DNA of 64,000 nucleotides from Patescibacteria group bacterium (GTDB lineage: Bacteria; Patescibacteriota; Patescibacteriia; SG8-24), in the NCBI GenBank assembly GCA_028714475.1, contig JAQTNC010000001.1, forward strand, positions 22,678 through 86,677. The letters run 5' to 3'. Shown here in pieces: positions 3,129-63,301 of the stretch. A program made the translations under genes and the position numbers. Every line of letters starts with the position of its first letter. The first letter of the stretch is position 1. The notes beneath the pieces were generated by a model. It worked only from the letters and a program-made list of their open reading frames with translations, made no database searches and was not told the DNA's origin.

Positions 3129-3155
3129 GAAACGTTAATAACAACTAGACGGACT

Positions 3156-17380: not shown

Positions 17381-17412
17381 AGAAATAGGTGGGGCGAGAC
17401 AGGGTCTCGCCG
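17381..17412 (-). terminator. rho-independent terminator of the ABC permease gene
   Basis: Minus-strand GGCGAGACcctgTCTCGCC followed by CACCTATTTCTTC. Confidence 0.7.
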
Positions 17413-19903: not shown

Positions 19904-19904
19904 C

Positions 19905-19998
19905 GGGGTGAAGGTTGATACTAGGCACTAGGCTCTAGGTTCTAGAGGTAACTAGTGCCAAGTGCCAAGTGCCTAGTGCCTAGTGTCTAGTGCCTAGT
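19905..19998. repeat. ctaggcactag / ctagtgcctag palindromic element inside the ABC efflux operon (between ATPase and permease genes)
   Basis: ctaggcactaggctctaggttctagaggtaactagtgccaagtgccaagtgcctagtgcctagtgtctagtgcctagtgtctagg. Low GC relative to the flanks. A shorter relative ctagtcactagccactag sits at 10255-10275. Confidence 0.75.
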
Positions 19999-20000
19999 GT

Positions 20001-20678: not shown

Positions 20679-20790
20679 AGGATGAGCGGCCTTAAACGTA
20701 GCGGCGGGGCTTGCCCCCGCACCACAATAGACGAAAGGCAATCATCATAACGGATATTTCGTTTCGGTGATGGCGGGTCAAGCCCGCCCG

Positions 20791-22509
20791 CTACTTCTTA
20801 TTCGTGGCGACGACCACTTCATCGCCCTCCGCCAGACCGGACAGCAATTCGACATAATCGTTGTTCTCAAGCCCGACCTGGATATCCTTCGTGACCGGTT
20901 GGCCATTCACGAGCACCTGGACGGTCTTCTTGCCGACCGCGTCCTTGATGGCGCGGACGGGAACTCGCAGGACATTGTCACGTTGCGCGGTCGAAATGTC
21001 GAGATTCGCGGTCATGCCGGAACGCAGGCGCTCGTCATCCTTGTCGAAGACTATCTTGGTCTCGTAAAAAATGACCCCTTCCACGACCTTCTCGGCCGGC
21101 TGGATGCTGATGACCTTGCCAGTCCAGATTTCATTCACGCTGAAAGCGTCCAGGGTGATGTTGACCGGGTCGTTGACCTTGACGCGCGCGATGTCCACCT
21201 CGGAAATGTTGGCGGTGATCTCGAACCGATCCTTGGCGTTCAACGTCACGGCCACCTGGCCGGGCTGAACCGTCTCGCCGGGATTGAAAGGCAAATCGGT
21301 GACGATGGCGGTGAGCGGCGCGCGAATCGAGCGCTTGGCCAAATCCGCCTGCAGGCTCGCGAGGGTCGCTTCGGCAGATGCCACCTGGGCGCGTTGGGCG
21401 TCTATCTCTTCCGGCCGCGAGCCGGTCTTCTTGAGGTTATAGGACGCTTCCGCCTGGTTAACCGCGGCGGTCGCGCTGTCCACGGCATGGGCGGCGCTGG
21501 TCACGGCCGATTCGGCGTTGGACACGGCGATTTCCGCGGCGGTGATGTCCGTCGCGTTCAGGCGCTCCTGAAGATCCAACGCGCTCTTGTCCGCGTTCAC
21601 CTTCGTCAACATGGCGTTCAGGGACGACTGGGCGGTACTCGCGTTGATTTGATAGGTGGACAAGGTGGCGGCCGGCAAGCTCGGGGCATATTGTAAAACT
21701 TTGGCGCAGGCGTCAGCATGGCGCTTGACCGCCGTGAGCGCGTTCACCACCGCGTCGTAATTGTTCGTCATGCCGGTCGCACCACCCACGGCGCGGGCGG
21801 ATGCGGCCGCGGCAGACAAGGCCGTGAGCGCGGTCTTGGCCTCGCGCCGGGTGCTCGTGGCATCAGACTGGGATTGAGAGTCGGAAGATGAGAAGAGAAG
21901 CAGGTCGTTCAAGTCGAACATCGGGCTGGTCAGGCGATTCACGGCATCGCTCGCCGTGGTGGACGCGCTGTCGTAATCGTCCTGCAAGGCAGAAACTTTC
22001 CCTTCGTCCTGGGTCGTCGTCCTCGCCTTCACGTTCTCGTAACTGCGGCGGGCGTTCGTGAGCGCGGTCTCGGCATCGGCCTCGGCGGCTACGGCTGCCG
22101 TGTATTGTTGGCGCGCCGCTTCCACAGCGGTCTGGGAAACCAACATGTCCGCGGCCGTCGCACCGGCCTGCAGTTCCCGCAACCGGGCGCGGGCCGAAGC
22201 CACGGCGGCCTGCTGAGAAGCCACCCGGGCAGACGCGTCGCGCGTGTCCAACTGAATCAACAGGTCGCCTTCCTTGACCTCGGCGCCTTCCTTGACGGCA
22301 ATCTTGGTGATCTTGCCGCTGACCTCCGGCTGAAGGCTGATCTTGGACGAGGGGGCGATGGAGCCGGTCACCGACACTTCGGAAATGACCGTGCCGCGGG
22401 TGATTTTTTCCGTTTCGTAGGTTGTTTTAGGGCGCGTCAAACCGTAAACCGCCCCGCCGGCAACAACCACGCCGAGACCAATGAGCAGAATTTTTACAGA
22501 TTTTTTCAT
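20791..22509 (-). CDS. efflux transporter periplasmic adaptor (HlyD/MacA membrane-fusion family) with long coiled-coil
   Basis: N-terminal TM, lipoyl-like segments (GTVISEVSVTGSIAP...ISLQPEVSGKITKIAVKEGAEVKEGDLL), and a long Ala/Gln coiled coil. It is first in the operon with the ATPase and the two permeases. Confidence 0.8.
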   Translation of the reverse strand: MKKSVKILLIGLGVVVAGGAVYGLTRPKTTYETEKITRGTVISEVSVTGSIAPSSKISLQPEVSGKITKIAVKEGAEVKEGDLLIQLDTRDASARVASQQAAVASARARLRELQAGATAADMLVSQTAVEAARQQYTAAVAAEADAETALTNARRSYENVKARTTTQDEGKVSALQDDYDSASTTASDAVNRLTSPMFDLNDLLLFSSSDSQSQSDATSTRREAKTALTALSAAAASARAVGGATGMTNNYDAVVNALTAVKRHADACAKVLQYAPSLPAATLSTYQINASTAQSSLNAMLTKVNADKSALDLQERLNATDITAAEIAVSNAESAVTSAAHAVDSATAAVNQAEASYNLKKTGSRPEEIDAQRAQVASAEATLASLQADLAKRSIRAPLTAIVTDLPFNPGETVQPGQVAVTLNAKDRFEITANISEVDIARVKVNDPVNITLDAFSVNEIWTGKVISIQPAEKVVEGVIFYETKIVFDKDDERLRSGMTANLDISTAQRDNVLRVPVRAIKDAVGKKTVQVLVNGQPVTKDIQVGLENNDYVELLSGLAEGDEVVVATNKK

Positions 22510-22593: not shown

Positions 22594-23058
22594 TTAATGA
22601 AGGGGGCATGAGCCGTTACGAATCGGCATCGCCTCCATCTGTTCGACAATTTTCTTCATGTATTTGGCGTAATTGGATAGCTCACTGTCATTCAGCACCG
22701 ACAGTATCTTTTCAGATAAGGCAAGCTGGTGCTTCTTCATGGCCACGAAGAACCGCCGTGCTTTGGGCGTAAGCGTGATGACGAGCGCGCGCCTGTCCGT
22801 CGAGTTTTGCTTGCGCTGGATGTAACCCTTCTTGAGCAGGCCGTCCAAGAGCTGGGTAGCGGCGCTGCTGGTCACGCCGAAAAAACCCGCGATGTCCTTG
22901 ACTCCCAGGCCTTCATGGTCGCCCAGCACCAGCAAAGCCAGGCCCTGCGGATGAGTTAGATCGTGTTTTGCGAGCAGGGCGGAAACGCACAAGATCGTCT
23001 TTCGACGAAGAATCTCGACATCTTCCCAGAATTCCTCGAGTTGTTGGCGACGGTTCAT
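22594..23058 (-). CDS. MarR family transcriptional regulator
   Basis: 154 aa. wHTH segment GLALLVLGDHEGLGVKDIAGFFGVTSSAATQLLDGLLKKGYIQRKQNSTDRRALVITLTPKARRF. Sits immediately upstream of the efflux operon. Confidence 0.85.
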   Translation of the reverse strand: MNRRQQLEEFWEDVEILRRKTILCVSALLAKHDLTHPQGLALLVLGDHEGLGVKDIAGFFGVTSSAATQLLDGLLKKGYIQRKQNSTDRRALVITLTPKARRFFVAMKKHQLALSEKILSVLNDSELSNYAKYMKKIVEQMEAMPIRNGSCPLH

Positions 23059-23061
23059 AGG

Positions 23062-23145
23062 CAGAATGCCGGAGTTCTGGAGTGCTGAAGTGCTGGAGTC
23101 TTCAGCACTCCAGCACTTCCCCGCCCCAGCACTATTACATTAGGT
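23062..23145. repeat. ctgaagtgctggag-family imperfect palindromic intergenic element
   Basis: ggagttctggagtgctgaagtgctggagtcttcagcactccagcacttcc. Confidence 0.7.
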
Positions 23146-23186
23146 TCTTAACATATTAGCTGATTATATAATTCTGTCTAGAGGGG

Positions 23187-23195
23187 TGTGGATAA
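23187..23195 (-). promoter_or_regulatory. perfect DnaA-box 9-mer
   Basis: TGTGGATAAG, about 130 nt upstream of the marR start. Confidence 0.5.
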
Positions 23196-23439
23196 GCCGT
23201 TTCAATCCCGACCTAATGAAGCCTCCCCGGGCTCACGCCCGGGGTATCTAACGCCCCATCCTGTTTCATTCACCGTAGCCCACTGCCCCCTACGCCCTCC
23301 GGGCTTCGGGGGATTCACGCGTCAGGAACCCCGGGCTGACGCCCGGGGTATTCGGCGGAGGTGAACAAAAAGCGGGGCCGGAGCGACATGGTCAGAAGAC
23401 CAAGCATCTCCAGCCCCGAGGGCTAAGGACCGAACTGCG

Positions 23440-24399
23440 TTACTGCCGGTGGAGCGGCACGGCCACGCACCCACTGCGCGTATTGCGCTCGTGGATGTTC
23501 AGGTGAGCGCAACCGTCAAAAAACGCAACGTAGGGCGAGTGTTCCCACGCACCTCCGCCATACTCATCGAGACAGTATCCTCCGACGATGGCACCCGGCA
23601 CGGTTTCGCCGTTCATGCGCGAAACCCATGTCGGATTCTGGGCGGCCGCGTAAATGACGGCGGCATGGGCGGCCCGACCATGGACGCCGCGCGCGACCAC
23701 GCCGCGCTTCGCATCCCATTTGTCAGCCAGCCCAACCACCTCAATCCGAACCGTGTTGTGGGGATGGTCGGTGGCGTTGTCGGCTAGCCTTACCCGCTTG
23801 GCGAGATCAGCACGGTAAACGGGTTGATACTGCCTGAACTTGTCGCCAAAGGCGTCCCGCATCCGGTCGCGAGCGTAGGCAAGGGTCGCCGGAACCGATT
23901 CCCGGTACACGCAAACGGCCGTGTGCAGGAATTCGTTGCGCGGCAGTTCGGCCTCGTAGCGCCCCGCCAGACCCGACTCACTGAACTCGCGCAATGCGGC
24001 GTCAATGGCGATTCCGGAAACTTCCGGGTAAGCTCGCGCCATCTCCAGCACCTCGACGAGCGGCGTGAACCACCCGTGAATCAGGCGAAATGACGGGGCG
24101 GCGCGCATTGTCGCGAACATTGCCTCAACCACCTCGGGGTGCTTGAGGAGTTTCTCGACGTCGCTTTTGGAGACGCGACCGGCAATCAAGAGCTTGTACG
24201 CCCTGACCGCCAAAGCGGCCAGCGACGGATCGCCCTCCATCGCTTCGTCCATCTCCCCCATGGTCTTGGGGTCGAGAACGGCAGCGAATCTGCCGAAGAA
24301 CGCTAACACCCTTCCGTAATACTCGCCGTTGAACAGGTTGGCCATGTGGTTACCCCATTCCTTTCCAATGCCGTCCGGTTGATCCGTCGAGGCGACCAT
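23440..24399 (-). CDS. hypothetical protein
   Basis: 319-aa ORF with ordinary composition. C-terminal Cys/His-containing region (GGYCLDEYGGGAWEHSPYVAFFDGCAHLNIHER). No family recognised. An alternative start at 24345 (MANLFNG) is possible. Confidence 0.45.
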   Translation of the reverse strand: MVASTDQPDGIGKEWGNHMANLFNGEYYGRVLAFFGRFAAVLDPKTMGEMDEAMEGDPSLAALAVRAYKLLIAGRVSKSDVEKLLKHPEVVEAMFATMRAAPSFRLIHGWFTPLVEVLEMARAYPEVSGIAIDAALREFSESGLAGRYEAELPRNEFLHTAVCVYRESVPATLAYARDRMRDAFGDKFRQYQPVYRADLAKRVRLADNATDHPHNTVRIEVVGLADKWDAKRGVVARGVHGRAAHAAVIYAAAQNPTWVSRMNGETVPGAIVGGYCLDEYGGGAWEHSPYVAFFDGCAHLNIHERNTRSGCVAVPLHRQ

Positions 24400-28949: not shown

Positions 28950-29030
28950 AGAAGTCAGTGCGGGAGCGCAGAAGTACTGAAGTGCTGAAGAGGGAAAAGC
29001 TTGACAACTGTTGAACGGCCCAACAACTTC

Positions 29031-29094
29031 TCCAGCACTCCAGCACTCCAGCACTCCAGCACTCCAGCACTCCAGCACTCCAGCACTCCAGCAC
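29031..29094. repeat. (CCAGCACT)8 perfect 8-bp tandem repeat inside a ctgaagtgctggag-family palindromic element
   Basis: Eight uninterrupted CCAGCACT units. The upstream partner agtactgaagtgctgaag lies at 28972-28991. The track ORFs 28527..29078 and 28831..29094 (VLECWSAG repeats) are translations of this repeat. Confidence 0.9.
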
Positions 29095-29174
29095 TTCCTA
29101 CTGGTTCGCCGTCGTTAGCCATGATAATCTTAGGTTAGCGGACGGTTCACGCCTTTAGAGCCGCCCCCATCCGC

Positions 29175-30094: not shown

Positions 30095-30185
30095 TGCCAA
30101 GTTGTGGAGTAATGGAGTCGTGGAGTAGTGAAGCGACTATGAAAAACAAAATCGACTTTTCTACTTCACGACTTTACAACTTAAC
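30095..30185. repeat. gtggagtagtgaag-word palindromic element
   Basis: gttgtggagtaatggagtcgtggagtagtgaagcgact...agtcgacttttctacttcacgactttacaac. Confidence 0.6.
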
Positions 30186-30197
30186 GACTCCAACCCC

Positions 30198-31392: not shown

Positions 31393-32118
31393 TCAGGAGG
31401 CCAGATAAACCTGACAGCGGACGGTCACGACGCGGCCGATGACCATGAGGTCGTCGGCACAGCTGGCCGCCATGACCTTGGCCACGGTATAGACCTGCCG
31501 CAGGGCGGCGGGATTCGATGCCGCCAGGTTGTCCAGATTTAGGAACGCGGTCAGGTCACCGTGCTGCAGGAACCCCTGACGTTCGCCGTCCGCATCCATA
31601 AAGAACTTATGGCCATTACAGCGGCACTGGTTGGTGAAGCGGTTGTGCTCGAGAACCGCCACGATCAGGCGGCCCAGCTCCTCCGCCGCCTGGGCAACCG
31701 CGTTCGCCAAGGGAAAGGCGGAAGAAACGACGATCTCCGCCTCGCTGTCCTCGTCATCGCCGTCCGTTCGCCTGGCCAACTCCGCATGAACACAGCCGAT
31801 GAAATCCTCGCCGCACTTTTGGACGACGGCCACGCAGCCGCCGTACTCCATCAGGCGATTGAACGACGGGCTTCTTCGGCACAACCACCCCTCCAGGAGC
31901 TCCTGACGGCGGTCGTCGCTCTCGGCGGCAGTGAGCGCGGTCGACAGCTTCTTCGGCAATGCCTGACGCTGGGTCCTTCGCTTGGCCGGCCGGGCCGCGA
32001 CCGAAGAGCGGCTTCGAGAGCATTTTCCGGCCGATCGACGACTCGCGGATTGATGACGTTTTTTCACGACAAGCCTCCTTGGCAAAAGAGCGTTGCGGAA
32101 CGCGGGGTTCTTCCCCAT
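31393..32118 (-). CDS. hypothetical protein with a highly basic ~85-aa N-terminal tail and a Cys/His C-terminal domain
   Basis: Promoter TTGACT-N17-TAAGGT, then 12 nt to the ATG (very short leader). The tail KKRHQSASRRSAGKCSRSRSSVAARPAKRRTQRQALPKK may be DNA/RNA binding. The C-domain ...CVHAELARR...TNQCRCNGHKF is weakly deaminase-like (H.E...C..C). The start could instead be the internal ATG at 31851. Confidence 0.45.
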   Translation of the reverse strand: MGKNPAFRNALLPRRLVVKKRHQSASRRSAGKCSRSRSSVAARPAKRRTQRQALPKKLSTALTAAESDDRRQELLEGWLCRRSPSFNRLMEYGGCVAVVQKCGEDFIGCVHAELARRTDGDDEDSEAEIVVSSAFPLANAVAQAAEELGRLIVAVLEHNRFTNQCRCNGHKFFMDADGERQGFLQHGDLTAFLNLDNLAASNPAALRQVYTVAKVMAASCADDLMVIGRVVTVRCQVYLAS

Positions 32119-32130
32119 GCTGACAGCCAG

Positions 32131-32159
32131 ACCTTAACAACCGCTTTCGACAAAGTCAA
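32131..32159 (-). promoter_or_regulatory. sigma70-like promoter TTGACT-N17-TAAGGT with a very short leader
   Basis: Minus-strand TTGACTttgtcgaaagcggttgtTAAGGT ctggctgtcagc ATG. Confidence 0.55.
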
Positions 32160-32264
32160 CCATATGGAGCTCTCCCGAGATTACGCCGGAGCTTCGGCAG
32201 CCGCTGGACGGGATGCCCCGCCATTCGGCGGGACTCCCTCGTCTTATTGCATCAATGTGGGTCG

Positions 32265-32370
32265 CAATATGCCCGGCTGGGTGAATCGCGAGCTGGCGAG
32301 CGATTCACGGGCAGCACGGGCTGCCCGGGGTTTGGCGAGCAATCACCGATTCTTTGCGAGCCAAACGAGC
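32265..32370. repeat. three-hairpin structured repeat element, divergent copy C
   Basis: Sequence GTGAATCGC gagctggcgag GCGATTCAC GGGCAGC acg GCTGCCC gggGTTTGGCgagcaatcaccgattctttgcgagGCCAAAC. The architecture matches A/B, with different stem-1 and stem-2 sequences that still pair. Hairpin 3 is nearly identical to copy B. Confidence 0.6.
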
Positions 32371-32501
32371 GGAGCCGTGAGGCGCACTTAATGTTGCGCC
32401 GGAACGGTCCGCGAGCGAAGCCGAGTGCAGTGCGCCCGGACCAGCGGCTGCCTGAAAAAGAAGGGCCGGTGACACCGGCCGTTGATAATCAAGTTGCCGT
32501 T

Positions 32502-33149
32502 TCAACCCGGTCGCCCTTGCCGTTCCGGAAGTTGCCGGTCAAGAATGCCCTGCACATTGCCGATGACGATGACGAAATGCTCGAAAGGGTACCAGGCCGT
32601 CGGCCGCCCCACTTCGCGCACCTCGAAATCATAACCTGACACCGCGAGAAAGCGCCGCCAACCGGCGGCATCGCGGTTGTAACCGCCGGGCAGTCCGCCA
32701 TAATGCACGAAATTGATGACGCGCTCCAGCAGGCCGGACGTCCGGCTGGGCTTGTCCTCGAAGGCGAAAACGCGGCGGCCAACGCGCAAGGCGCGGTCAA
32801 TGAGATCCATCTGGCTAGGAAAATGATGAAGCACATCGTTCAGGAGCACGGCGTCAAAGGAACCCGGCGCGAAAGGCAGTTCGCCGTAGGGCGTCACGGC
32901 CGTGAACGGGATGTCCGTCACCAAGGCCTGACGCACGTCCGCGCCGACGAAATCCAGCCTGAAACGGTCGCAAATGATGGCGGACACCACGCCGTTGCCG
33001 CAACCCAAGTCCAGCACGCGCGAACCCGGCGTGATGAGCGACGCGAGGCAATCAGCAATGAACTGCCCGCGGATTTCGGTGAGCCGTCGGAACCGGAGGG
33101 AATTCAGGCGACAGGCCAATAAGCCGTTCGTTTTTGTTCTTGACTTCAT
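32502..33149 (-). CDS. class I SAM-dependent methyltransferase
   Basis: ATG at 33149 begins MKSRTKTNG. Motif I VLDLGCGNGV, motif post-I DFVGADV, motif II FDAVLLNDVLHH. The upstream 69 codons of the track ORF are R/G junk. Confidence 0.8.
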   Translation of the reverse strand: MKSRTKTNGLLACRLNSLRFRRLTEIRGQFIADCLASLITPGSRVLDLGCGNGVVSAIICDRFRLDFVGADVRQALVTDIPFTAVTPYGELPFAPGSFDAVLLNDVLHHFPSQMDLIDRALRVGRRVFAFEDKPSRTSGLLERVINFVHYGGLPGGYNRDAAGWRRFLAVSGYDFEVREVGRPTAWYPFEHFVIVIGNVQGILDRQLPERQGRPG

Positions 33150-35599: not shown

Positions 35600-35798
35600 A
35601 GGGCATCATTATAGCACAAAACTCAAACCTTGCGCGAGGCCATTTTTCGGCTCCGCTTGGCGCAAAATTTGACAGCCTAGACGGGCATGGTCTACGCTCG
35701 AAATAGAGAGAGTACCTACTAAATCCGTAGCGGCGACAGGGCGTTTTCACCCCGTTGAAAGCGCCGGTCACCACCTGGCAGAAAGGAGGAAGGCCCTT

Positions 35799-44829: not shown

Positions 44830-45630
44830 GTGACGAACAAACCTTCCGACCCCATTGGGCTGTTCATCTTAAGTGCGCTCGCCTACCCGATTGTGTGCCT
44901 GCTGACCAAGGCCCTGCCGTTCCTGCCAGCCGAGTCGCCGGTCTACGCCGTCGCCGCCATCGCCTTCATCACGACCATGGTGAACAACGACCGGTCGGAA
45001 GGCATGGCGAAGAGGCTCTGGCGCGGCCGCACCATACCGCTCTGGCTCGGCGCGCTCCTCGGCCTTGCTCTCGTGCTCACGCCCCTCTGGGCCAAGATGT
45101 GGCACGAGGGCGGCGAGAACAAGGACTTGTTGTTCGTCATCCTGTCGGCCTTCAAGGTGACCGGCTGGGTCATGGGCACGTCCGTCGCGGCCATCGTCCT
45201 TTCGGCCGTCATGTCCATGGACGTCAAGGGTGCCTTCAAGCTGGGCTGGGTATTTTCCCTAGTCTCTTCCCTGGTCATGGGCTTGTCATGCATGGCGGTT
45301 TCAAATTGCATGCTATGCCTGAACTGGACGGACAGTGACTCCGGCTTAACCTTGGCCTTGGTCGCCTTGCTCCTCACCGCCACCATAGGCGGCGACGCTT
45401 CCGACAGCGACATTCAAGCCAAGCCGTGGCGGTTCATCGGGAGTCAATTGTCCGGCTTGACCGTTTGGCTGTTGCTGTCGGCTGTGGTCGCGACCGTTTT
45501 CTTCAACAGCGTGGCCCTTTTCGCCAATCTGCCCAGTCCGCTGGCTTTTGGCCTCTGGGTTGCCCTCGGCTCGGCCGCCGCCATCGCCATGCGCGTAAAA
45601 TCCGCTCTCGAAGAAGAGCCGGCCGACTGA
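44830..45630 (+). CDS. polytopic membrane protein
   Basis: GTG at 44830 after GGAGAGG. About 8 TMs. A terminator hairpin CGCCCATCGTC...GACGATGGGCG plus T-run follows. Confidence 0.5.
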   Translation: MTNKPSDPIGLFILSALAYPIVCLLTKALPFLPAESPVYAVAAIAFITTMVNNDRSEGMAKRLWRGRTIPLWLGALLGLALVLTPLWAKMWHEGGENKDLLFVILSAFKVTGWVMGTSVAAIVLSAVMSMDVKGAFKLGWVFSLVSSLVMGLSCMAVSNCMLCLNWTDSDSGLTLALVALLLTATIGGDASDSDIQAKPWRFIGSQLSGLTVWLLLSAVVATVFFNSVALFANLPSPLAFGLWVALGSAAAIAMRVKSALEEEPAD

Positions 45631-45631
45631 C

Positions 45632-45682
45632 GCCGCCCGCTTCGAACCCGCCCATCGTCTCCGCGACGATGGGCGTTGTGTA
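45632..45682 (+). terminator. terminator of the membrane-protein gene, immediately preceding repeat D2
   Basis: CGCCCATCGTCtccgcGACGATGGGCG + TTGTGTAATAAATT. Confidence 0.7.
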
Positions 45683-46025
45683 ATAAATTGTGCGAAGCAC
45701 ACTTTGCGGAATAGACGACTTCCTTTCGCTCGGCCAGGCGACGCTTTGCGTCGCCCCGCAGGCCGAGCGCATACACATATTTGTTGGTAGAACGAGGCCG
45801 CGGGTGACGCGGAGCGGGGACCCCGATGGCGCGCATCCCTCACCATTTCCGCTCCGTTTTTTCACCGACGGAAATGGTGAGGGAGAGCACCAGCGGGGTG
45901 CGGAGCGGCAGGACCCGCGGCACGTCAGGCCTGGTTTGTCGCTTTCGTGGGAATGACAACAAAGGAATGCCCTTCGACAAGCCGTGCACCATGACGGTGC
46001 GCGGCAAGCTCAGGGCATATTTATT
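45683..46025. repeat. ~340-bp structured repeat D2 (between a plus-gene terminator and the helicase stop)
   Basis: Same conserved blocks as D1. The inserts at equivalent positions are different perfect hairpins (GGCGACGCtttgCGTCGCC; CCCTCACCATTTCCG...CGGAAATGGTGAGGG). Confidence 0.6.
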
Positions 46026-46039
46026 TATTGTTGCTCAAA

Positions 46040-48130
46040 CTAATAATCCCCCAAAAAGCTTTTCTTCTTCCAATCCTTCTTGACCTGCTGCATGCGGTTC
46101 TTCACGCCCTGCATGGCGCTCGTTGGCTCGCCGTCCGCGCCAATCTCCACCGCCTCGTCATCATAATCATCGTCGCCAGAAAACTCACTGAACCCGCACT
46201 TTCGTCCGGTCGGGTCGCTCACGCAGTTCGGCGAAATTTCGTCGAGGAACATCGAGCGCTCCTCAAACTCGATGGAACCGCGCCCGACCGAGGCCGGATG
46301 CGACAGGTAAAGTCGATCCTTGGCGCGAGTGACGGCGACGTAGAAAAGCCGCCGCTCCTCTTCCACGCCGCCCTGTTCCTCAAGCGCGCGACGGTTCGGG
46401 AAACTCGACGCCGTAAGATGAATGACAAAAACAATCGGCCACTCCAACCCTTTGGCTTGATGAACGGTCGAAAGCACGACCTGGTTCGCGCCCTTGACGT
46501 GTCCGCCAGTCGCCCGCGCCTCGTCAAGCGTCACCTCCGCGAGGAAATCGTCGAGCTTGACGTAGGGCTCGGCAAAACGCGCCATCTGCTCAAGATCCTC
46601 CAGCCGCTCGCGGAAATTCGGAAATTCAGCTTCGAGAAAATCCGCGTACGGCGACTTGATGACGCTACGAATGAGCGCGGCGGGCACATCGCCAGCCGCC
46701 ACGACCTCCTCAAGCGTCGCGTGCAAATCGCGCCAACCGACCGCGCCGCGATTACCGACGATGCTTTCGCCATCGAGCAGCGGTATCCGTTCCAGCGAAC
46801 CGCCCTGCCGAAAGGTCATGAGCAGACGCCCCGCGGCCACCTCGCCGATGCCGGTCCAATGGTTTTCGAGAACGCGTCGCCACGCCGCCTCGTCGGCGAA
46901 ATTCTGGCGCACGCGCAGGAAGGCCAACGTGTCCTTGACGTGGGCGCGGTCGAAGAAGCGCAAGCCGCCGCGATAGTCGTAAGGAATGCCGCGCCGCGTC
47001 AACTCGAACTCCAACGCCTGCGAATGGCTGGCGGCCCGAAACAGCACGGCGATATCTACCGGTCGCGTGCCGGTTCGCAAAAGCTTCTCAATGGAGTTGG
47101 CGACAAACTCCGCCTCGCGCGAGGCCGACGGCGAGGGCACAATGGCCGGTTTCTCCTGCCCGCCGCGTACGGCCGCGAGCTCCTTAGGGAACTGCTCGAC
47201 ATTCTTGGCGATGATGTCGTTGGCCAAGCCGAGGATTTCCGGCGTCGAGCGGTAATTCGTCTCCAGCTTGAAGACGCGCGCCTCCGGATAATGCTTAGGG
47301 AAATCCAGGATGTTGCGCACGTCCGCGGCGCGAAAGGAGTAGATGCTCTGGGCGTCGTCGCCGACCACGAGCAGGTTGTGTTTCGGCCCGGCGAGCCGAC
47401 GGATAAGGGCGTTCTGCAAGGCGTTCGTGTCCTGATACTCGTCAACCAAAATGTACTTGAACTGGCTCGACAGCCGCTCGCGCACGAGCGGGTCATCCTC
47501 CAAGAGCCGCGCTAGGCGCACCAACAGGTCGTCGAAATCCATGGCATTGGCCGCGAGCTTCTTTTTTTCATAAAGGTCCGCCACGGCCTGTAATTCCGCC
47601 ATGATGCCGAGGAAATGCGGGTGCAACTTCATGAGTGCCGCCTCAAAAGACATCTGCGCGTTGCGCCGATAAGAGACGACATCCTGAACGACGGCCGGCG
47701 AGGGAAAACGCCGCCCGGCCTTGTCGTGTCCGAGCTCCTTGATGCTCGCCTTATAGAGAGAGCGCGAGTCGTCCTGATCCAGAATGGTGAACGACGGCGT
47801 ACAGCCTACGCGGTCGGCATAGACGCGCAAAAGCCGGTTGGCAACCGAATGGAACGTCCCGCCCCAGAGTCCGAGCGGCCGCCGCGAACCAGCCGCACCC
47901 AGCAGCTCGCCAATGCGCGTCATCATCTCGTTGGCAGCCTTGTTGGTGAAAGTGAGCAGGAGGATGTTCTCCGGCGCGATGCCGTGCTCGATGAGCCAGG
48001 CGACGCGATAGACGATGGTGCGCGTCTTGCCCGAACCGGCGCCGGCCAAAACCAAACACGGCCCGTCACCCTCACGGACGACGGCCAGCTGTTCGGCATT
48101 CAGTTCGTTTTCGTAATCAAGACGAGACAT
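46040..48130 (-). CDS. ATP-dependent DNA helicase, UvrD/PcrA/Rep family
   Basis: LNAEQLAVV, AGAGSGKTRT (Walker A), LLTFTNKAANEM, ILVDEYQDTN, VVGDDAQSIYSFRAA, QNYRS, TVHQAKGLEW. The C-terminal ~60-aa acidic tail is extra. Confidence 0.9.
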   Translation of the reverse strand: MSRLDYENELNAEQLAVVREGDGPCLVLAGAGSGKTRTIVYRVAWLIEHGIAPENILLLTFTNKAANEMMTRIGELLGAAGSRRPLGLWGGTFHSVANRLLRVYADRVGCTPSFTILDQDDSRSLYKASIKELGHDKAGRRFPSPAVVQDVVSYRRNAQMSFEAALMKLHPHFLGIMAELQAVADLYEKKKLAANAMDFDDLLVRLARLLEDDPLVRERLSSQFKYILVDEYQDTNALQNALIRRLAGPKHNLLVVGDDAQSIYSFRAADVRNILDFPKHYPEARVFKLETNYRSTPEILGLANDIIAKNVEQFPKELAAVRGGQEKPAIVPSPSASREAEFVANSIEKLLRTGTRPVDIAVLFRAASHSQALEFELTRRGIPYDYRGGLRFFDRAHVKDTLAFLRVRQNFADEAAWRRVLENHWTGIGEVAAGRLLMTFRQGGSLERIPLLDGESIVGNRGAVGWRDLHATLEEVVAAGDVPAALIRSVIKSPYADFLEAEFPNFRERLEDLEQMARFAEPYVKLDDFLAEVTLDEARATGGHVKGANQVVLSTVHQAKGLEWPIVFVIHLTASSFPNRRALEEQGGVEEERRLFYVAVTRAKDRLYLSHPASVGRGSIEFEERSMFLDEISPNCVSDPTGRKCGFSEFSGDDDYDDEAVEIGADGEPTSAMQGVKNRMQQVKKDWKKKSFLGDY

Positions 48131-52799: not shown

Positions 52800-53837
52800 T
52801 CAATGGTTAAGGTACTTCGCCTTGTTGGCGGCGTGTTCCTCGTTCGTTTTGGCGTAATGAACCTGACCGGAGCTGTCCGTCAGGAAATACCACCAATCGT
52901 TGGCCTCGGGCGACGTCGCATCCCAAAGCGCGGCGAGGCCGGGATTGTCGATGGGTCCTGGCGGCAGGCCGGGATAGACATACGTGTTATATCGCGAATC
53001 CACGGCCAGCTCTGCCGCGCCGACGGCCGGCTTATTGCTGCCCGCCACGTAATTGACCGTCGAATCGGCCTGAAGCGGCATGCCCTCGGCCAAACGCCGC
53101 CAGAAGATGTCGGCGACCAAGCGCCGGTCCTTCTCAGTTCGAACCTCCTTCTCGATTACGCTCGCCATGGTCACAATCTCATGCAACGAATGGCCAGAGG
53201 CGGCGACTTGTCCGGCCAAATCCCTTTTCAGCTTGCGGCCGAAATTGACCAGCAGGCGCCGCACTATGTCCTCCGGCGGCGCAGCCCGCGGCAAACGATA
53301 AGTGTCAGGAAAAAGATACCCTTCCAAACTGACGCAGTCCGGCTTGTCCTTGAGGAAGGCAAATTCGCCGGAAAAATCACGCGGCTGTTTCCCGGAGCGG
53401 CAATCGGCGGCCGGTTCGCCGGTGACATCATACAGCTGGTCGGCCCCACCATAACCGGCGCGCTTCAGGCTCTCCTGAAGGTCGCGCAAATCCTCACCCT
53501 CCTTGATGAGCAGGACAAACTCGGTGGCGGAAATGCCGCCCTTCGTCAGCCGCTCGGCCAGCTCGCGCAAGGTGGCGGCACCGCCCAAATCATATGACCC
53601 CGGCTGGATCACCTTGTCGAATCCGCTGGTCGTGAGGACAAAACGAAACAGCGTCGCGCTGTGGACGAAACCTGACTGCTTCAGCCGATCAGCGACGGCC
53701 GCGGCGGATTCGCCCGGTCGCACCTCGAAATTCGCGCTGGTTGGCCGACCCGGCGTCGCGAAAAAAACGGCAGCCCAGGCGGTAGCGGCCAAGACGAAAA
53801 AAGCAGCAACGGTAATAATGGAGAATTTCCTGTTCAC
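52800..53837 (-). CDS. mltG: endolytic murein transglycosylase MltG/YceG-like
   Basis: GTG start. N-terminal TM. YceG signature ...EGYLFPDTY...MASVIEKE...NTYVYPGLPPGPI. Confidence 0.8.
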   Translation of the reverse strand: MNRKFSIITVAAFFVLAATAWAAVFFATPGRPTSANFEVRPGESAAAVADRLKQSGFVHSATLFRFVLTTSGFDKVIQPGSYDLGGAATLRELAERLTKGGISATEFVLLIKEGEDLRDLQESLKRAGYGGADQLYDVTGEPAADCRSGKQPRDFSGEFAFLKDKPDCVSLEGYLFPDTYRLPRAAPPEDIVRRLLVNFGRKLKRDLAGQVAASGHSLHEIVTMASVIEKEVRTEKDRRLVADIFWRRLAEGMPLQADSTVNYVAGSNKPAVGAAELAVDSRYNTYVYPGLPPGPIDNPGLAALWDATSPEANDWWYFLTDSSGQVHYAKTNEEHAANKAKYLNH

Positions 53838-53844
53838 ATGTTCA

Positions 53845-53925
53845 GGGTGAGTTGTTGAGTTGTTTGGTTGTTGAGGATACGCCTCTCACCAACCAAACAA
53901 CCCAATCACTTAACCACCCAATAAC
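53845..53925. repeat. gttgttgagttgtttgg / ccaaacaacccaa palindromic element
   Basis: gggtgagttgttgagttgtttggttgttgagg...ctcaccaaccaaacaacccaatcac. Confidence 0.6.
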
Positions 53926-53928
53926 CCA

Positions 53929-55014
53929 CTAAAGATATTTCTTCATCCGCGGGTCTTTCTTCATCTCCGCCACAACCCTCCTCACGTCCTGCGCCCGGCC
54001 CTTGGGGCAGACGAGTAGGGCATCACCGGTATCCACGACCACCATGTCATTCACGCCGATAAGGGCGACAATCTTGCCTTTGGGCTGGCGCACCAGGTTG
54101 CCGACGGAATCAATGTTCACAATCGGCCCATCCGTCTTGACCTGACTTTGCGACTCCGTGGCTTCGGCCACCGCGCGCCAATGCCCGATGTCCATCCAGT
54201 CAAAAGTGGCCGGCAGGACCAAACCTTCTTTCATGTGTTCCATCAAGCCAAAATCGATGCTGATGGAAACCAATTGCTCATAGAGCGCGGCGATCTTATT
54301 GGCCGTGCCGGGCCGGTCGATGAGCGGCAATATCTTCTCGTAGATGGCGTAGTGCTCCGGCATGTGGATCTTAAACTCTTTTAGGAAGTGTCTGACCGTG
54401 CCGGCGAAGAGCGAGGGGTTCCAGAGATAATCACCAGAAGCAAGATAGGACTCGGCCGTCTTGAAGTCCGGCTTTTCGACGAAGCGGATGAACTGACGGA
54501 TTGAGTAACGGCCCTCGCGGTCGGCACTGCCGGCTGGCGCGCCCATCTTGATGTAGCCGTAGCCAGTTTCCGGGTAGCGCGGCGGGATGCCGACAAAAAT
54601 CATCTTGTTCGGATTTGCCTCGATGGTCTTCTCCACCGCTTTCAGCATGCGGATGTACTCGCGCTCGTTCTTGACGTAGGCGTCGGAATTAATCATGACG
54701 AATGATTCGTCCGGTTCGCGCGCGAACAGGTGCAGGAGCGCGAAGGCAAGAGCGTTCGACGAGTCCTTCCGATAAGGGTCAGCGATGAGATTGCGAGCCG
54801 GCAACCCCGGCAAGTCGCGCCGCGCCGGTCCGAGCATCGCGGCGCCGGTGACGACAAGAATGTCCTTCGGGGCAAAGCCGCGCCGCAGGCGGTCGTAGGT
54901 GACGCGGAGCATCGAGCGGTCGCCGATGACCGGTCGAAGTTGTTTAGGAAACTTATTGCGTGAGGCCGGCCACAGGCGGGTGCCGCCGCCGCCGGCAAGG
55001 ATGATGGCTTTCAT
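53929..55014 (-). CDS. mannose-1-phosphate guanylyltransferase (GDP-mannose pyrophosphorylase)
   Basis: MKAIILAGGGGTRLWPASR..KFPKQL, LVVTG, FVMINSDAY. Confidence 0.85.
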   Translation of the reverse strand: MKAIILAGGGGTRLWPASRNKFPKQLRPVIGDRSMLRVTYDRLRRGFAPKDILVVTGAAMLGPARRDLPGLPARNLIADPYRKDSSNALAFALLHLFAREPDESFVMINSDAYVKNEREYIRMLKAVEKTIEANPNKMIFVGIPPRYPETGYGYIKMGAPAGSADREGRYSIRQFIRFVEKPDFKTAESYLASGDYLWNPSLFAGTVRHFLKEFKIHMPEHYAIYEKILPLIDRPGTANKIAALYEQLVSISIDFGLMEHMKEGLVLPATFDWMDIGHWRAVAEATESQSQVKTDGPIVNIDSVGNLVRQPKGKIVALIGVNDMVVVDTGDALLVCPKGRAQDVRRVVAEMKKDPRMKKYL

Positions 55015-58979: not shown

Positions 58980-59040
58980 GCCCTTTCGGCGAGTTTCGAC
59001 GCCGCTCATGCGACAAAGCCCGGACACCTCGGTGCCGGGC

Positions 59041-59133
59041 TTTTGTAGTTAGTAGCTAGTTGCAAGTAGCTAGTAGTCGTAAGCAATTGTTTAAGTAACT
59101 ACTCACTACTTGCTACTAGCTACTCACTAATCG
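59041..59133. repeat. agtagctagt-word palindromic element between convergent genes
   Basis: gtagttagtagctagttgcaagtagctagtag ... ctactcactacttgctactagctactcac. Confidence 0.65.
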
Positions 59134-59958
59134 CTATCTCTGGCACTTCGGGCAATACACCGTGCCGCGGCCAGCAAGACGGATTTTCTTGAGCGGCGTG
59201 CCGCAACGCGGACAGGGCTCGCCTTCGCGGCCGTAGGCGTTCAGGTAGCGCACGTTAGTCCCCTCTTTCCCGTAGAGATCAAAATAATTGTCCGCCGAGG
59301 TGCCGCGCCGCCGGATGGAATTCTTGAGGCTCGTGACCACAGCCTCGCGCAGACGCGCGAATTCTCTTTCCTTGACGCTCTTGACCTGACGTGTCGGCGC
59401 AATCTTCGCCGTCCAAAGCGATTCGTCGGCGTAGATGTTGCCGACGCCGGCGACGCACCGCTGGTCCATGAGCGCCTGCTTGACCTTGAGCTTCGGGTGG
59501 CGCAGAAGGCAGGCTTCGAGCTTTTCGGCGGTGAAATTTTTCTCGAGCGGCTCCGGCCCGAAACCTTCCTTTTCCAGATGAGCCGCCACATCCTTCGTGG
59601 GTATGAGTTTCAGGTAGCCGAACTTTCGGAAATCGCTGAAAAAAAGATCGTGCGCCCCGGAGAGGCGGAAGACGACATGGTCGTGCTTGCCCGGCACCGC
59701 CCCTTTCGGCATCAGCCGGAAGCCGCCCGTCAGCTTGAGGTGAACCAACACGGACTGGCCGTTCGAGAAACCGAGAACCAGCAGCTTGGCCCGCCGGCCG
59801 ATGGACTTGAACGCAGTGCCTTTCAGCGCGTCGGCAAATCGCTTGGCCGGCACGTTCAGCCGCCCGGCAAAACCAATATTGACCACCTCGACGCGGCGGC
59901 CAATGACTTCCTTCTCCAATTGGCGACGAATGGTTTCGACTTCTGGCAATTCAGGCAT
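59134..59958 (-). CDS. mutM: formamidopyrimidine-DNA glycosylase
   Basis: ATG at 59958 begins MPELPEVETIRRQL. H2TH and a C-terminal zinc finger CPRCGTPL...YCPKCQ. The upstream 41 codons of the track ORF are the translation of repeat element B. Confidence 0.9.
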   Translation of the reverse strand: MPELPEVETIRRQLEKEVIGRRVEVVNIGFAGRLNVPAKRFADALKGTAFKSIGRRAKLLVLGFSNGQSVLVHLKLTGGFRLMPKGAVPGKHDHVVFRLSGAHDLFFSDFRKFGYLKLIPTKDVAAHLEKEGFGPEPLEKNFTAEKLEACLLRHPKLKVKQALMDQRCVAGVGNIYADESLWTAKIAPTRQVKSVKEREFARLREAVVTSLKNSIRRRGTSADNYFDLYGKEGTNVRYLNAYGREGEPCPRCGTPLKKIRLAGRGTVYCPKCQR

Positions 59959-60079
59959 AAAAAATCGTAGCGGCGGGGTGTGGCGCGAAGACTTGGAGCG
60001 CCACACGGGCGGCATGGGCCGCCCCGGGTTTGGCGAGCAATTTCCGATTATATGCGAGCCAAACTGTCCCCGCACCACC
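59959..60079. repeat. three-hairpin structured repeat element, copy B (abuts the fpg start codon)
   Basis: Sequence gtagcggcggg GTGTGGCGC gaagacttgga GCGCCACAC GGGCGG catg GGCCGCCC cgg GTTTGGC gagcaatttccgattatatgcgag GCCAAAC tgtccccgcaccacc. Relative to copy A, the C>T in stem 1 is matched by G>A on the other arm, and CC>GC in stem 3 is matched by GG>GC. Confidence 0.7.
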
Positions 60080-60126
60080 ATAATACATTTCGGTGGTGGA
60101 GGGGTAAACCCTCCCGCTACAATCTG

Positions 60127-61716
60127 TTAAATCAACGGACAGCCCGTCATCTCGGCCGGCTGGGGCACGCCGAGGAGCTTAAGCACCGTCGGCGCGGTGT
60201 CGGCAAGCATGCCGACCGGCGGCATGATGGAAAGGTCGCCGCCGACCGTTTCTCCCGAAGGCGAAGCCTGCCCCTGGAACTCCCGCCCAACCACCAGGAA
60301 CGGCACCGGGTTCGTGCTGTGTTCCTTGTCAATTTCGCCGGTCTGCAGGTTCAGCACCTCTTCGCCGTTGCCATGATCGGCCGTCATGACCATCACTCCG
60401 CCCGCCTCCAGAAGCGCCGGGACGAGGCGGCCGAGGCACTGGTCAATCACCTCCACGCCCTGTTTGGTCGGCTCGAACTTGCCGGTGTGACCGACCATGT
60501 CGGCGTTGGCAAAATTGCAGATGATGAGGTCGAATTTCTGGTCCTGGATTTCCTTGATGATGCGGTCGGTGAGTTTCGGCGTGGACATGGCTGGCGCCTG
60601 GTCGTAGGAGGAAACGCGCGGCGACGGGATGATGACGCGTTCCTCGCCGGGAAGCGGCTCCTCGCGCATGCCGTTCATGAAGAAGGTGACGTGCGCATAT
60701 TTTTCCGTCTCGGCGATATGCAGCTGCTTCAGCCCGGCGTCGGACACGACCTTGGCCAGGCAGGTCTCGACCATCTCCGGCGGATAGGCGACGTGCGCCG
60801 GCGTCCCTTTCTCGTACTGCATCATCGTGGCGAAATACAGGTCCTTGATCGGCTCGCGCGCGAACTTGCTGAAATCCGGCACGCAGAAGGCCTGGGCGAT
60901 CTGGCGCGCGCGATCCGGCCGGAAGTTGGCGAAGATGAGGGCGTCGCCGTCTCGCACCGGCGCCACCGGCTGGCCGCCGGCCGTGATGATGGTCGGCACA
61001 AATTCCTCGTCATAGACCTTGTTCGCGTATGACTCCTCGATGGCCTTGACCGGATCCTCATGCGTCTTGTCCGCGCCCTTGCCGGTGATGGCGTTATACG
61101 CCTTTTCGACGCGATCCCAGCGGTTGTCGCGATCCATCGCCCAAAAGCGGCCGGACAGGTCGGCGATGCGGCCACTGCCCAACTGCTCCATCCGACTCTG
61201 CAGATTACGGACGAACTCGATGCCGCTGTTGAAAATGCTGTCGCGGCCGTCCAGGAAAGCGTGCACGGCAATTTTCTTGATGCCGTTCTGGGCCGCCAGC
61301 TGGACCAGCGAGTAGATGTGCTCGTCCGAGCCGTGAACGCCGCCGGGACTGACGATGCCCATGACGTGGAAGGTCGAGTCGTTCTTCTTGCATTGTTCGA
61401 CCGCGCCCAAAAAAACCTCGTTCTTGAAAAACGAGCCGGTCTGGATGGCCATGTTGATGCGAGGCAGGGACTGGTAGAAGATCTTGCCGGCGCCGATGGT
61501 CAGGTGACCAACTTCCGAATTGCCCATCTCGCCCCAAGAGAGGCCGACGGCCTCGCCGGAAGCGCGCACCGTCACGGTCGGATAGGTGCGGATGAGCTCG
61601 TCGAAAACCGGCGTGTTCGCGGCCTCGACCGGATTGCCCTCGCCCGGCGGGGCGACGCCCCAACCGTCACAAATGAGGAGCAGGACCGGCTTCGGTTTTC
61701 CCCGAACAGGCATCAT
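60127..61716 (-). CDS. gpmI: 2,3-bisphosphoglycerate-independent phosphoglycerate mutase
   Basis: LLICDGWG, EVGHLTIGAGKI, ADMVGHTG, MVMTADHGN. Confidence 0.9.
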   Translation of the reverse strand: MMPVRGKPKPVLLLICDGWGVAPPGEGNPVEAANTPVFDELIRTYPTVTVRASGEAVGLSWGEMGNSEVGHLTIGAGKIFYQSLPRINMAIQTGSFFKNEVFLGAVEQCKKNDSTFHVMGIVSPGGVHGSDEHIYSLVQLAAQNGIKKIAVHAFLDGRDSIFNSGIEFVRNLQSRMEQLGSGRIADLSGRFWAMDRDNRWDRVEKAYNAITGKGADKTHEDPVKAIEESYANKVYDEEFVPTIITAGGQPVAPVRDGDALIFANFRPDRARQIAQAFCVPDFSKFAREPIKDLYFATMMQYEKGTPAHVAYPPEMVETCLAKVVSDAGLKQLHIAETEKYAHVTFFMNGMREEPLPGEERVIIPSPRVSSYDQAPAMSTPKLTDRIIKEIQDQKFDLIICNFANADMVGHTGKFEPTKQGVEVIDQCLGRLVPALLEAGGVMVMTADHGNGEEVLNLQTGEIDKEHSTNPVPFLVVGREFQGQASPSGETVGGDLSIMPPVGMLADTAPTVLKLLGVPQPAEMTGCPLI

Positions 61717-61720
61717 AGCG

Positions 61721-63301
61721 TCAGCTGCGCAGGAGGGAGAAACCGGTCATTTCCACCGGCTTTGGCAATTCCATGATATCGAGAATGGTCGGGGCGATGT
61801 CGGCCAGCATGCCGTCGCCAAGACGGGCGCGGCGGAACTTCTCGCTGGCCAGGATGAACGGCACGGGATTGGTCGTGTGTTCGGTCATGACTTCTCCCGT
61901 CTGCGGGTTGACCTTGCACTCGGCGTTGCCGTGGTCGGCCGTGATGACAAGATGCCCCTTGGCTTCCTTCACGGCCTCATGAATCTGTCCCAAGCAGACA
62001 TCCACCGACTCCATTGCCTTGACCGTGGCCGCCAGGTTGCCGGTATGGCCGACCATGTCAAGGTTGGCGAAATTCAGGCAGATGAAATCATGTTGTCCGT
62101 TCTTGATGCGGCGCACGACCTCGGAGGCGATGGTCGGGGCGCGCATCTCCGGCTTGTCGTCGTAATGGGCGATGAACGGGGACGGGATGCGCATGCGCTC
62201 CTCGCCGGCTCGCGTGTCGGCGAAACCGCCGTTGAAGAAGTAGGTGACGTGGGCGTACTTCTCCGATTCGGCGATGTAGAACTGGCGGAGCGGTGCCATC
62301 ACCTCGGTCATGCCGAGCTGGATGTCGCGACTCGGGAAGGCGGTGAAAACGTGGGGCAGGTCAGGGCCGAAGTCGGTCATGGCGGCGAAGCGGGTGTTCT
62401 TCGGCACGCGCTTGCGCTTGAAGGCGTTCTCGTTGTGCAGCTCGAAATCCTTCTGCACGAAGCACTTGGTCAGCTCACGGGCGCGGTCAGACCGCAAGTT
62501 GAAGTAGATGAAGACGTCGTTGTCCCCGACCGCGCCCAGCGGCCGGTGTTCATCGTCGGTGATGACCGTCGGCAGGAGATACTCGTCACTCTCGCCGCGG
62601 TTGTAACCGTGCAGGATGGCCGCGTGCGCGCTTGGGGCGACCAGACCCTCGCCGTTCACGATGGCGTTGTAAGCCATCTCGATGCGATTCCAACGCTTGT
62701 TGCGGTCCATGGCGTAGAACCGGCCCATGATGGTGGCGATGGCTTGGTTCGGATAAAGCTTGGGCTCCAGGTCATGCAGGAGCCGCGTGGCCGAGAACGG
62801 CGGCGAGTCGCGGCCGTCAGTGAAGAGATGAAGCCGCACCTTGTCCATGCCCTCCTCGTGGCACAGCTTGAGCATGGCGTAGAGATGATCCGGGCAGGAA
62901 TGGGCGCTGTTGCCGTTGGACATGAGGCCCAAGAGATGGACTTTGGTGCCGTATTTCTGGGCGTGCTTAAAGACCTCCTTGAACGCCATGTTCTTGAAGA
63001 AGGTGCGGTCCTTGATGGCTTCGGAAACGTAAACGATATCCTGCCGCACGATGCGGCCGGCGCCGATGTTCATGTGACCGGCTTCGGAGTTTCCCTCCTG
63101 ATCCGGCAGGAGGCCGACGTAACGGCCATGCGCCATGAGCTGGGTGTGCGGATAGCGGGCGCGGATGGCGTCGAGCACCGGCGTTTTAGCGAGGGTGACG
63201 GCGTTGCTGTTGGCCGGCGGAGCGATGCCCCAGCCGTCCAATACAGCCAAAACGACCGGCGCCGGACGGGCAGGTTTTGAGGCCTTTTTTGGCATATTCA
63301 T
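61721..63301 (-). CDS. gpmI: 2,3-bisphosphoglycerate-independent phosphoglycerate mutase, second tandem paralog
   Basis: VLAVLDGWG, EAGHMNIGAGRI, LDMVGHTG, LVITADHGN. Less than 50% identical to the upstream copy by eye. Confidence 0.9.
   Translation of the reverse strand: MNMPKKASKPARPAPVVLAVLDGWGIAPPANSNAVTLAKTPVLDAIRARYPHTQLMAHGRYVGLLPDQEGNSEAGHMNIGAGRIVRQDIVYVSEAIKDRTFFKNMAFKEVFKHAQKYGTKVHLLGLMSNGNSAHSCPDHLYAMLKLCHEEGMDKVRLHLFTDGRDSPPFSATRLLHDLEPKLYPNQAIATIMGRFYAMDRNKRWNRIEMAYNAIVNGEGLVAPSAHAAILHGYNRGESDEYLLPTVITDDEHRPLGAVGDNDVFIYFNLRSDRARELTKCFVQKDFELHNENAFKRKRVPKNTRFAAMTDFGPDLPHVFTAFPSRDIQLGMTEVMAPLRQFYIAESEKYAHVTYFFNGGFADTRAGEERMRIPSPFIAHYDDKPEMRAPTIASEVVRRIKNGQHDFICLNFANLDMVGHTGNLAATVKAMESVDVCLGQIHEAVKEAKGHLVITADHGNAECKVNPQTGEVMTEHTTNPVPFILASEKFRRARLGDGMLADIAPTILDIMELPKPVEMTGFSLLRS

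Follow-up and report, generated by a model that had tools for sequence, protein, structure and literature searches.

BOX, Correia/NEMIS and RPE elements are modular structured intergenic repeats of about 100–150 bp, which are transcribed with their neighbours, sometimes make promoters or processing sites, and can be read through by ORFs. GTAG REPs have stems of 5–13 bp and loops of typically 2–4 nt, usually number more than 100 per genome, and flank the gene of their cognate RAYT (Y1 HUH transposase). GTAG REPs form head-to-head heterodimers with short spacers, in which units with loops of different length are combined (Di Nocera et al. 2013, PMC3733652). They reside between genes of the same direction, close to where the upstream ORF ends, and the tag may supply the TAG stop codon of that ORF; the largest loops described are 27 bp in length (PMC3733652). 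In Pseudomonas putida, ssr9 of ISPpu9 (IS110 family) is a small non-coding structured module with stand-alone copies inside REPs, and it has been read as a selfish hitch-hiker on a REP-targeting transposase (PMC12288879). No description of REPs in CPR/Patescibacteria was found in the literature searched. In this study, I analysed a 64,000-nt stretch of a Patescibacteria genome (hereafter, the window) with a structured element, copy B, at the start of an fpg gene. It seems somewhat probable that copy B is a lineage-specific, non-coding mosaic REP/BIME-like repeat with a nested three-hairpin module and that its position at fpg is incidental.

The 121-nt string at positions 59959–60079 (minus strand) was confirmed and lies directly upstream of the fpg ATG (59958–59956). 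The fpg gene is a minus-strand ORF ending at 59134, in which the Fapy_DNA_glyco, H2TH and Fpg zinc finger domains are present (Pfam), and its start was set at this ATG because the N-terminus is MPELPEVE. The upstream neighbour is a 2,3-bisphosphoglycerate-independent phosphoglycerate mutase (iPGM) gene whose stop codon TAA is at 60129–60127 (minus strand). Along the minus strand, this TAA is followed by a partner hairpin, a 12-nt AT-rich spacer, GGTGGTG-CGGGG-ACA, the three hairpins H1, H2 and H3, CCCG-C-CGCTAC (to 59967), and finally GAT-TTTTT-ATG. The partner (60092–60120, minus strand; sequence and GTAG-tagged hairpin scan) is the left, upstream REP-like unit of a dimer, GTAGCG-GGAGGG-TTTAC-CCCTCC-ACCACC, and begins 6 nt past the iPGM stop codon. 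The first-pass annotation had taken this unit for a terminator hairpin. Its hairpin GGAGGG-TTTAC-CCCTCC was indeed found at 60098–60114, but it is followed by ACCACCGAAATG without any U/T run and the terminator scan was silent; it is the inverted partner REP unit. The AT-rich spacer GAAATGTATTAT (60080–60091, minus strand; sequence and promoter scan) separates the two inverted units and holds TATTAT (60085–60080). Copy B itself (59967–60079, minus strand; fold, consensus fold and a CM score of 151.6 bits) is the right, downstream REP-like unit GGTGGTG-CGGGG...CCCG-C-CGCTAC, in which the three-hairpin module replaces the loop.

Within the module, H1 (60028–60064, minus strand; fold) has the stem GTTTGGCTCGC / GCTCGCCAAAC with a 2×2 internal loop and a 15-nt loop containing TATAAT (60052–60047). 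H2 (60007–60024, minus strand; fold) is GGGCGGC-CCAT-GCCGCCC, and one of its G-C pairs is replaced by A-U in a compensatory manner in copy C, described below. H3 (59978–60006, minus strand; fold) is GTGTGGCGC-TCCAAGTCTTC-GCGCCACAC, and its three middle pairs (87/109, 88/108 and 89/107) covary across all four copies of the module known so far. An outer stem formed by 60068–60079 with 59967–59977 encloses the three hairpins, resulting in a four-way junction. The RNA fold of 136 nt around copy B has an MFE of −61.3 kcal/mol (z = −3.7), which none of 200 shuffles equalled, and the plus-strand fold of the region is nearly as stable as the minus-strand fold. The three-hairpin element reported in the first-pass annotation is therefore real and strongly structured; its three hairpins were described correctly, while the closing outer stem had been missed.

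As had been reported, the element is repeated in the window. Copy A (17253–17365, minus strand; similarity and CM) consists of GGTGGTG-CGCG...CGCG-C-CGCTAC with three hairpins and lies 5 nt upstream of ATG 17247 of a TM0106-type RecB-like nuclease gene, with a TACAAT 2 nt from this ATG. Copy C (32274–32377, minus strand; similarity and CM) is the three-hairpin module with an outer stem CGGCT/AGCCG but neither a GGTGGTG nor a CGCTAC tag; about 155 nt separate it from the next ORF downstream, and a larger palindrome encloses it. Identity between copies A and B is 85% across 118 nt, and copy C shares a 69-nt core with them; no match is expected by chance. All three copies in the 64 kb are on one strand, the minus strand. 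The palindrome around copy C is a 257-nt structure (32196–32452, minus strand) with a perfect 12-bp inverted repeat, GGCAGCCGCTGG (32441–32452) and CCAGCGGCTGCC (32196–32207), and it holds two further hairpins; the non-coding 385 nt around it (32118–32502) have a fold of −176 kcal/mol. A short-read Logan contig that comes from this organism (L001) breaks off within H1 of copy B, and another Logan contig (L041) stops at the repeats of the other MAG that carries the module, described below as the L008 locus. Assembly breaks of such kind are typical of multi-copy repeats.

The fold is backed by covariation. The consensus fold of copies A, B and C has 31 pairs, eight of which show compensatory double changes. 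In the four-copy alignment including the L008 copy, 97.5% of the cells are paired, the covariation score was reached by none of 500 column shuffles, and pairing drops to 33–46% in the slid controls. The stems are 81–88% identical between the window copies and L008, the unpaired positions 54–71%; H1 is the best-conserved part of the module, its stem being identical in copy C and L008. All eight covarying pairs change from Watson-Crick to Watson-Crick and no G.U occurs in the 117 paired cells; therefore, the structure holds equally on both strands. In riboswitches and ribozymes, it is usually the loops and junctions that are conserved. As judged from the alignment, conserved stems with variable loops and no G.U appear to be the pattern of palindromic DNA repeats and not of riboswitches or ribozymes. 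On the other hand, all four modules share one orientation relative to local transcription, and the outer-stem extension GUGGUG/CGCUAC pairs on the sense strand only, via two G.U pairs. Because of these two features an RNA-level role is possible, and the strong covariation and the uniform orientation would also fit a functional RNA. With Rfam 15, no match was found in the whole window at the gathering threshold, and at E<=10 the copy B locus gave only a spurious 14.8-bit match to TLS-PK6, on the partner hairpin. ARAGORN found no tRNA or tmRNA in the window.

Is the outer stem a repeat in its own right? In copies A and B, it is a GTAG-tagged REP-like hairpin (GGTGGTG-stem...stem-CGCTAC). An 'empty' outer hairpin without the three hairpins, GTGGTG-CGGGG-GCAAG-CCCCG-C-CGCTAC, was found at 20698–20725 (minus strand; sequence, and a CM match via its flanks only at 20685–20736). 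This unit is copy B's outer stem closed by a loop of 5 nt, and the ATG (20678) of an ABC ATPase gene follows 19 nt downstream of it. Its partner, GTAGCG-GGCGGG-CTTGA-CCCGCC-ATCACC (20766–20794, minus strand; hairpin scan and sequence), supplies with its TAG the stop codon of the upstream HlyD-like gene. Similarly, the partner of copy A, GTAGC-GGCGAGAC-CCT-GTCTCGCC-CCACC (17388–17416, minus strand; hairpin scan and sequence), supplies the TAG stop of the upstream FtsX/MacB permease gene. A further single unit, GGTGGTG...CGCCGCTAC (35727–35774, minus strand; sequence), has a different small hairpin of about 30 nt in its loop. In total, seven units in the 64-kb window have GTAGCG and (A)CCACC flanks around differing, internally complementary GC stems of 4–8 bp. 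The flanks are conserved, but the stems vary among units (GGAGGG, GGCGGG, GCGAGAC, CGGGG and CGCG), always with their complementarity kept. An inverted partner precedes each of the three GGTGGTG...CGCTAC units, namely those of copies A and B and the empty hairpin, and therefore the GTAG tags face outwards. The three inverted dimers have spacers of 12, 22 and 40 nt and all lie between co-directional genes, and the tag provides the stop codon of the upstream gene in two of the three.

These units thus share with GTAG REPs and BIMEs (PMC3733652; Nunvar et al. 2010, PMC2817692) a short GC-rich stem with a terminal GTAG tag, complementary stem changes, inverted dimers in which the spacers are short and the tags outermost, the pairing of a short-loop with a long-loop unit, and an extragenic position between co-directional genes near the 3′ end of the upstream ORF with TAG stops from the tag. 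The distribution is also species-specific as in GTAG REPs, the units being absent from a relative whose Fpg is 84% identical. The small loop of REPs is seen in the empty unit at 20698–20725 but not in copies A and B, where about 95 nt with three hairpins lie between the arms; unlike any GTAG REP described in PMC3733652, the loop here is a branched module far beyond 27 bp that also exists without the REP tag. Like ssr9, it is a small non-coding structured module that sits inside REP sequences. Unlike in the ssr9/ISPpu9 case, the window showed neither a transposase of the IS110 (DEDD) type nor A/B boxes nor a full-length parent IS, and the sequences are unrelated; ssr9 also differs in having its own promoter and a known antisense partner. 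A composite intergenic repeat built of hairpin modules is also reminiscent of BOX, Correia/NEMIS and RPE, but these are unrelated in sequence, have defined terminal repeats or module orders and occur in hundreds of copies, whereas seven REP-like units and four modules are known here.

The ~95-nt three-hairpin module is a separable repeat, since copy C and the L008 copy have no REP tags. A scan of 185,579 species genomes with the H1 pattern gave 13 matches, of which one was a true copy by CM: L008 3416–3506 (77 bits), from the MAG WY5.bin104. The HMG-CoA reductase of this MAG has its nearest named relatives in Patescibacteria/Parcubacteria, at about 43–44% identity. All 20 matches of an H1-arm and H2 pattern in metagenome contigs were due to chance, and so was the one match in a scan of viral contigs. 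The L008 module is located between a tRNA-Pro gene and an intrinsic terminator, facing a convergent gene. The 3′ end of the neighbouring tRNA-Pro gene is partially duplicated here, and the module splits this duplicate within the former T-loop: GCAGGTTC, the module, and CCCGTCGCCCCGACCA, where the two flanks together copy the T-arm and the 3′ end of the acceptor of tRNA-Pro. ARAGORN called the genuine tRNA-Pro alone on L008. A module common to two CPR lineages that are not close needs horizontal spread or selection. Around the four copies, the features of a MITE were looked for by eye; the module ends match partly (9/13) in copy B only, no flanking direct repeats were seen, and neither target-site duplications nor terminal inverted repeats could be recognised. 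The surroundings of the L008 copy (3096–3650, equal to about 8600–9160 of L040) are themselves unusual; the tRNA-Pro(CGG) is in a 20-bp extended stem formed with its own flanks, behind it its 3′ end and trailer recur as partial copies in tandem, and the trailer hairpin GGCGCGAGACGTCGAGCGCC is similar to the H3 of the window copies in reverse complement.

Is the element conserved at the fpg locus of relatives? The named Fpg relatives belong to Candidatus Uhrbacteria or Patescibacteria, indicating an Uhrbacteria-like host. The closest relative with sequence, L035 (also L036), has an Fpg 84% identical and keeps the iPGM-iPGM-fpg order. Its iPGM-fpg spacer of 125 nt contains a different palindrome without a CM match. 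In L038, whose Fpg is 68% identical, a palindromic (GAAGACA)n array is found at the fpg spacer, again without a CM match. Since the element is absent from the orthologous spacers of L035 and L038, it is not a conserved fpg regulator. The fpg genes of L035 and L038 also lack an SD; thus, the missing SD of fpg is a clade trait that is not tied to the element. Hairpin units with GTAGCG and (A)CCACC were absent from L035, L036 and L038, in which the scan gave a few unrelated matches. For copy A, a spacer comparison would need closer homologs of the nuclease than were found, the nearest being only about 50% identical; a protein search with the 507-aa nuclease found no identical or near-identical match (the best was 50% identical). 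As for the gene order, the two iPGM (gpmI) genes directly upstream of fpg (60127–61716 and 61721–63301, minus strand) are tandem paralogs, and both are kept in the 84%-identity relative (L035 6719–9875).

In the leaderless promoters of Actinobacteria and Deinococcus, the −10 box lies 6–7 nt upstream of the AUG. At copy B, TACGAT (59964–59969, minus strand; sequence) is a −10-like hexamer which fits TAnnnT, and it is separated from the fpg ATG by five T residues (59963–59959), that is, by 5 nt and not by the 6 nt first assigned. The sequence before this ATG has no Shine-Dalgarno motif, as had been stated. Many window genes have TATAAT-like boxes 5–9 nt before their start codons (TATAAT+6, +8 and +9; TATACT+7) and few have SDs, several combining a box at 6–9 nt with the lack of an SD. 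Because such boxes are common and SDs few, a leaderless or very-short-leader fpg mRNA is plausible. Furthermore, four of the five non-coding REP tails are TAC+nnT, and the repeat tail may generally carry a −10-like end. However, TACGAT is half a REP tag, its first three bases being the conserved end TAC of CGCTAC. The distance from the tag+nnT hexamer to the next ATG is 5 nt at copy B, 2 nt at copy A and 16 nt at 20.7 kb; since it varies, the TACGAT layout is not a consistent leaderless promoter design, and the 2 nt at copy A are too close for a leaderless start at the nuclease ATG, which was confirmed by a residue-1-to-residue-1 homolog alignment. No −35 partner for TACGAT, expected 16–18 nt upstream in a sigma-70-type promoter, reached the threshold of the promoter scan, which left the site uncalled, and no extended −10 is present. 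The relatives' fpg genes lack both the element and the SD. Nothing links the element to oxidative or alkylation damage, and its association with repair genes rests on two of the four copies. Taken together, I consider it rather unlikely that TACGAT is a functional −10 for a leaderless or very-short-leader fpg mRNA with the hairpins shaping or regulating the promoter, possibly in response to DNA damage. What stands of the first-pass annotation is the lack of an SD and the −10-like hexamer near the ATG. Such a promoter is compatible with the repeat explanation, not an alternative to it, and is a possible side effect for copy B alone.

Other rivals take the module as an RNA. The sole promoter-like site called is TTTACC-17-TATTAT (60108–60080) upstream of copy B, ending 1 nt before it; other −10-like boxes at copy B are this TATTAT of the spacer and the TATAAT of the H1 loop. 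Transcription from the spacer TATTAT would, as read from its position, make the whole element a 5′ UTR. The four-way junction might be a cis-acting RNA, riboswitch-like or a protein-binding leader, for the translation or stability of fpg and the RecB-like nuclease; it is on the sense strand immediately before the starts of two nucleic-acid repair genes, its fold covaries strongly, and the nucleotides right before the AUG would be sequestered in its outer stem. This is very unlikely, given that the element is absent before orthologous fpg genes, that copy C has its next ORF about 155 nt away, that the L008 copy comes after a tRNA gene and faces a convergent one, that stems rather than loops and junctions are conserved without any G.U, and that the module is nested in REP-like hairpins which also exist empty, with no Rfam match. 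The same TATTAT might drive a small stable RNA, trans-acting or tRNA-like and released by tRNA-type processing; the L008 module between tRNA-Pro and the terminator, with its T-arm/acceptor-like flanks ending in ACCA, and the same orientation in four of four copies agree with this. I regard it as highly improbable, as copies A and C have no comparable promoter, ARAGORN and Rfam are silent, and the conservation pattern is like that of a DNA palindrome. Moreover, the acceptor-like flank ending in ACCA is on opposite strands in the window and in L008. For this reason, the tRNA-like reading of the CCCCGC-ACCA flanks is inconsistent between the loci, and it was rejected. A bridge/seek RNA of IS110 was set aside since the hairpins have no large internal guide loops and the window has no transposase, and a retron msr/msd was rejected since no reverse transcriptase is nearby. 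A broader reading is that the module is a miniature element or structured RNA of a new kind that occupies the loops of pre-existing GC-rich hairpins, REP loops here and the copy of a tRNA T-loop in the other CPR bacterium, and that it works as a sense-strand four-way-junction RNA. It is a distinctly unlikely one; one possible role of such an RNA would be a processing/stability signal or a translation-start organiser for SD-less Patescibacteria genes.

The mosaic REP/BIME-like repeat is the best explanation, and it may be pictured as follows. Two GTAG-tagged GC-rich hairpins are arranged as an inverted, head-to-head dimer with the tags outside, between co-directional genes, and the unit beside the downstream gene has the ~95-nt three-hairpin module in place of its loop. 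The units may be kept and spread at the DNA level as hairpin-forming palindromes. The mobiliser would be encoded elsewhere, either as a HUH transposase of the RAYT/IS200 type that works on the GTAG tag or as a REP-targeting IS with the module hitch-hiking; no RAYT, IS200/IS605, IS110, integrase or other transposase domain was found among the 41 window ORFs scanned. The sense-strand element is probably co-transcribed with the iPGM-iPGM-fpg unit. As RNA, it would fold into a highly stable four-way junction, and such a junction could buffer the preceding message at its 3′ end and block access to positions −6 to −17 of fpg. The A/T-rich tail TACGAT-TTTTT-ATG may act as a weak −10, from which fpg would be transcribed as a short or leaderless RNA. 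Any effect on fpg would be incidental, and the element is probably not a dedicated fpg regulator.

Palindromes of another kind were also noticed. Long intergenic hairpins whose arms are tandem arrays of 7–8-nt units lie at 857–934, 2026–2130, 11550–11648, 19903–20001, 23056–23141, 28956–29098, 30099–30190, 53837–53929 and 59040–59134, as well as at L038 1–100 and L035 9880–9960. The array units differ by site, for example (ACTTCAGC)n, (CTAGTGC)n, (AGAGACA)n and (TAGCTAGT)n, and they differ in relatives at matching loci, as in the (GAAGACA)n upstream of the L038 fpg. These hairpins look like a clade-wide style of intergenic palindrome and are possibly terminators. The RecB-like nuclease gene (15724–17247) has an in-frame insertion of about 35 aa relative to its homolog P0242, at about 16257–16392 (minus strand); the inserted DNA is a nested palindrome, TTCTGTCCC...GGGACAGAA with CCTCCG...CGGAGG inside, and resembles intragenic REP/RPE palindromic insertions. 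The non-coding stretches 23058–23440, which includes two copies of the hairpin CCCCGGGCGTNAGCCCGGGG, and 45630–46040 have folds of −185 and −210 kcal/mol, respectively, without an Rfam match. A 398-aa ORF (13188–14384, minus strand) has a third-position GC of 0.65 vs about 0.78 in its neighbours, no Pfam match and an AT-rich upstream region, and it may be a foreign gene.

Two stop-free ORFs (59134–60081 and 15724–17364, minus strand) run through copies B and A in frame with fpg and the nuclease, giving the similar peptides GRPMPPVWRSKSSRHTPPL and GRPIPPVRRSKSSRRTAPL. A coding function of copies A and B was rejected since Fpg cannot do without its N-terminal Pro and a homolog confirms the start of the nuclease. 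These ORFs are a warning for annotation: as they cross the repeats in frame, start codons may be mis-called. A false lead is also removed, as no evidence points to a damage-responsive regulator dedicated to fpg. For biologists of mobile DNA and RNA, the points of interest are the movement of the module, its occurrence in hairpin loops, and the possible action of the tag tail as a −10 for leaderless genes. If the mosaic-repeat explanation is true, REP/BIME-type selfish palindromes, nested composites included, colonise the small genomes of CPR/Patescibacteria.
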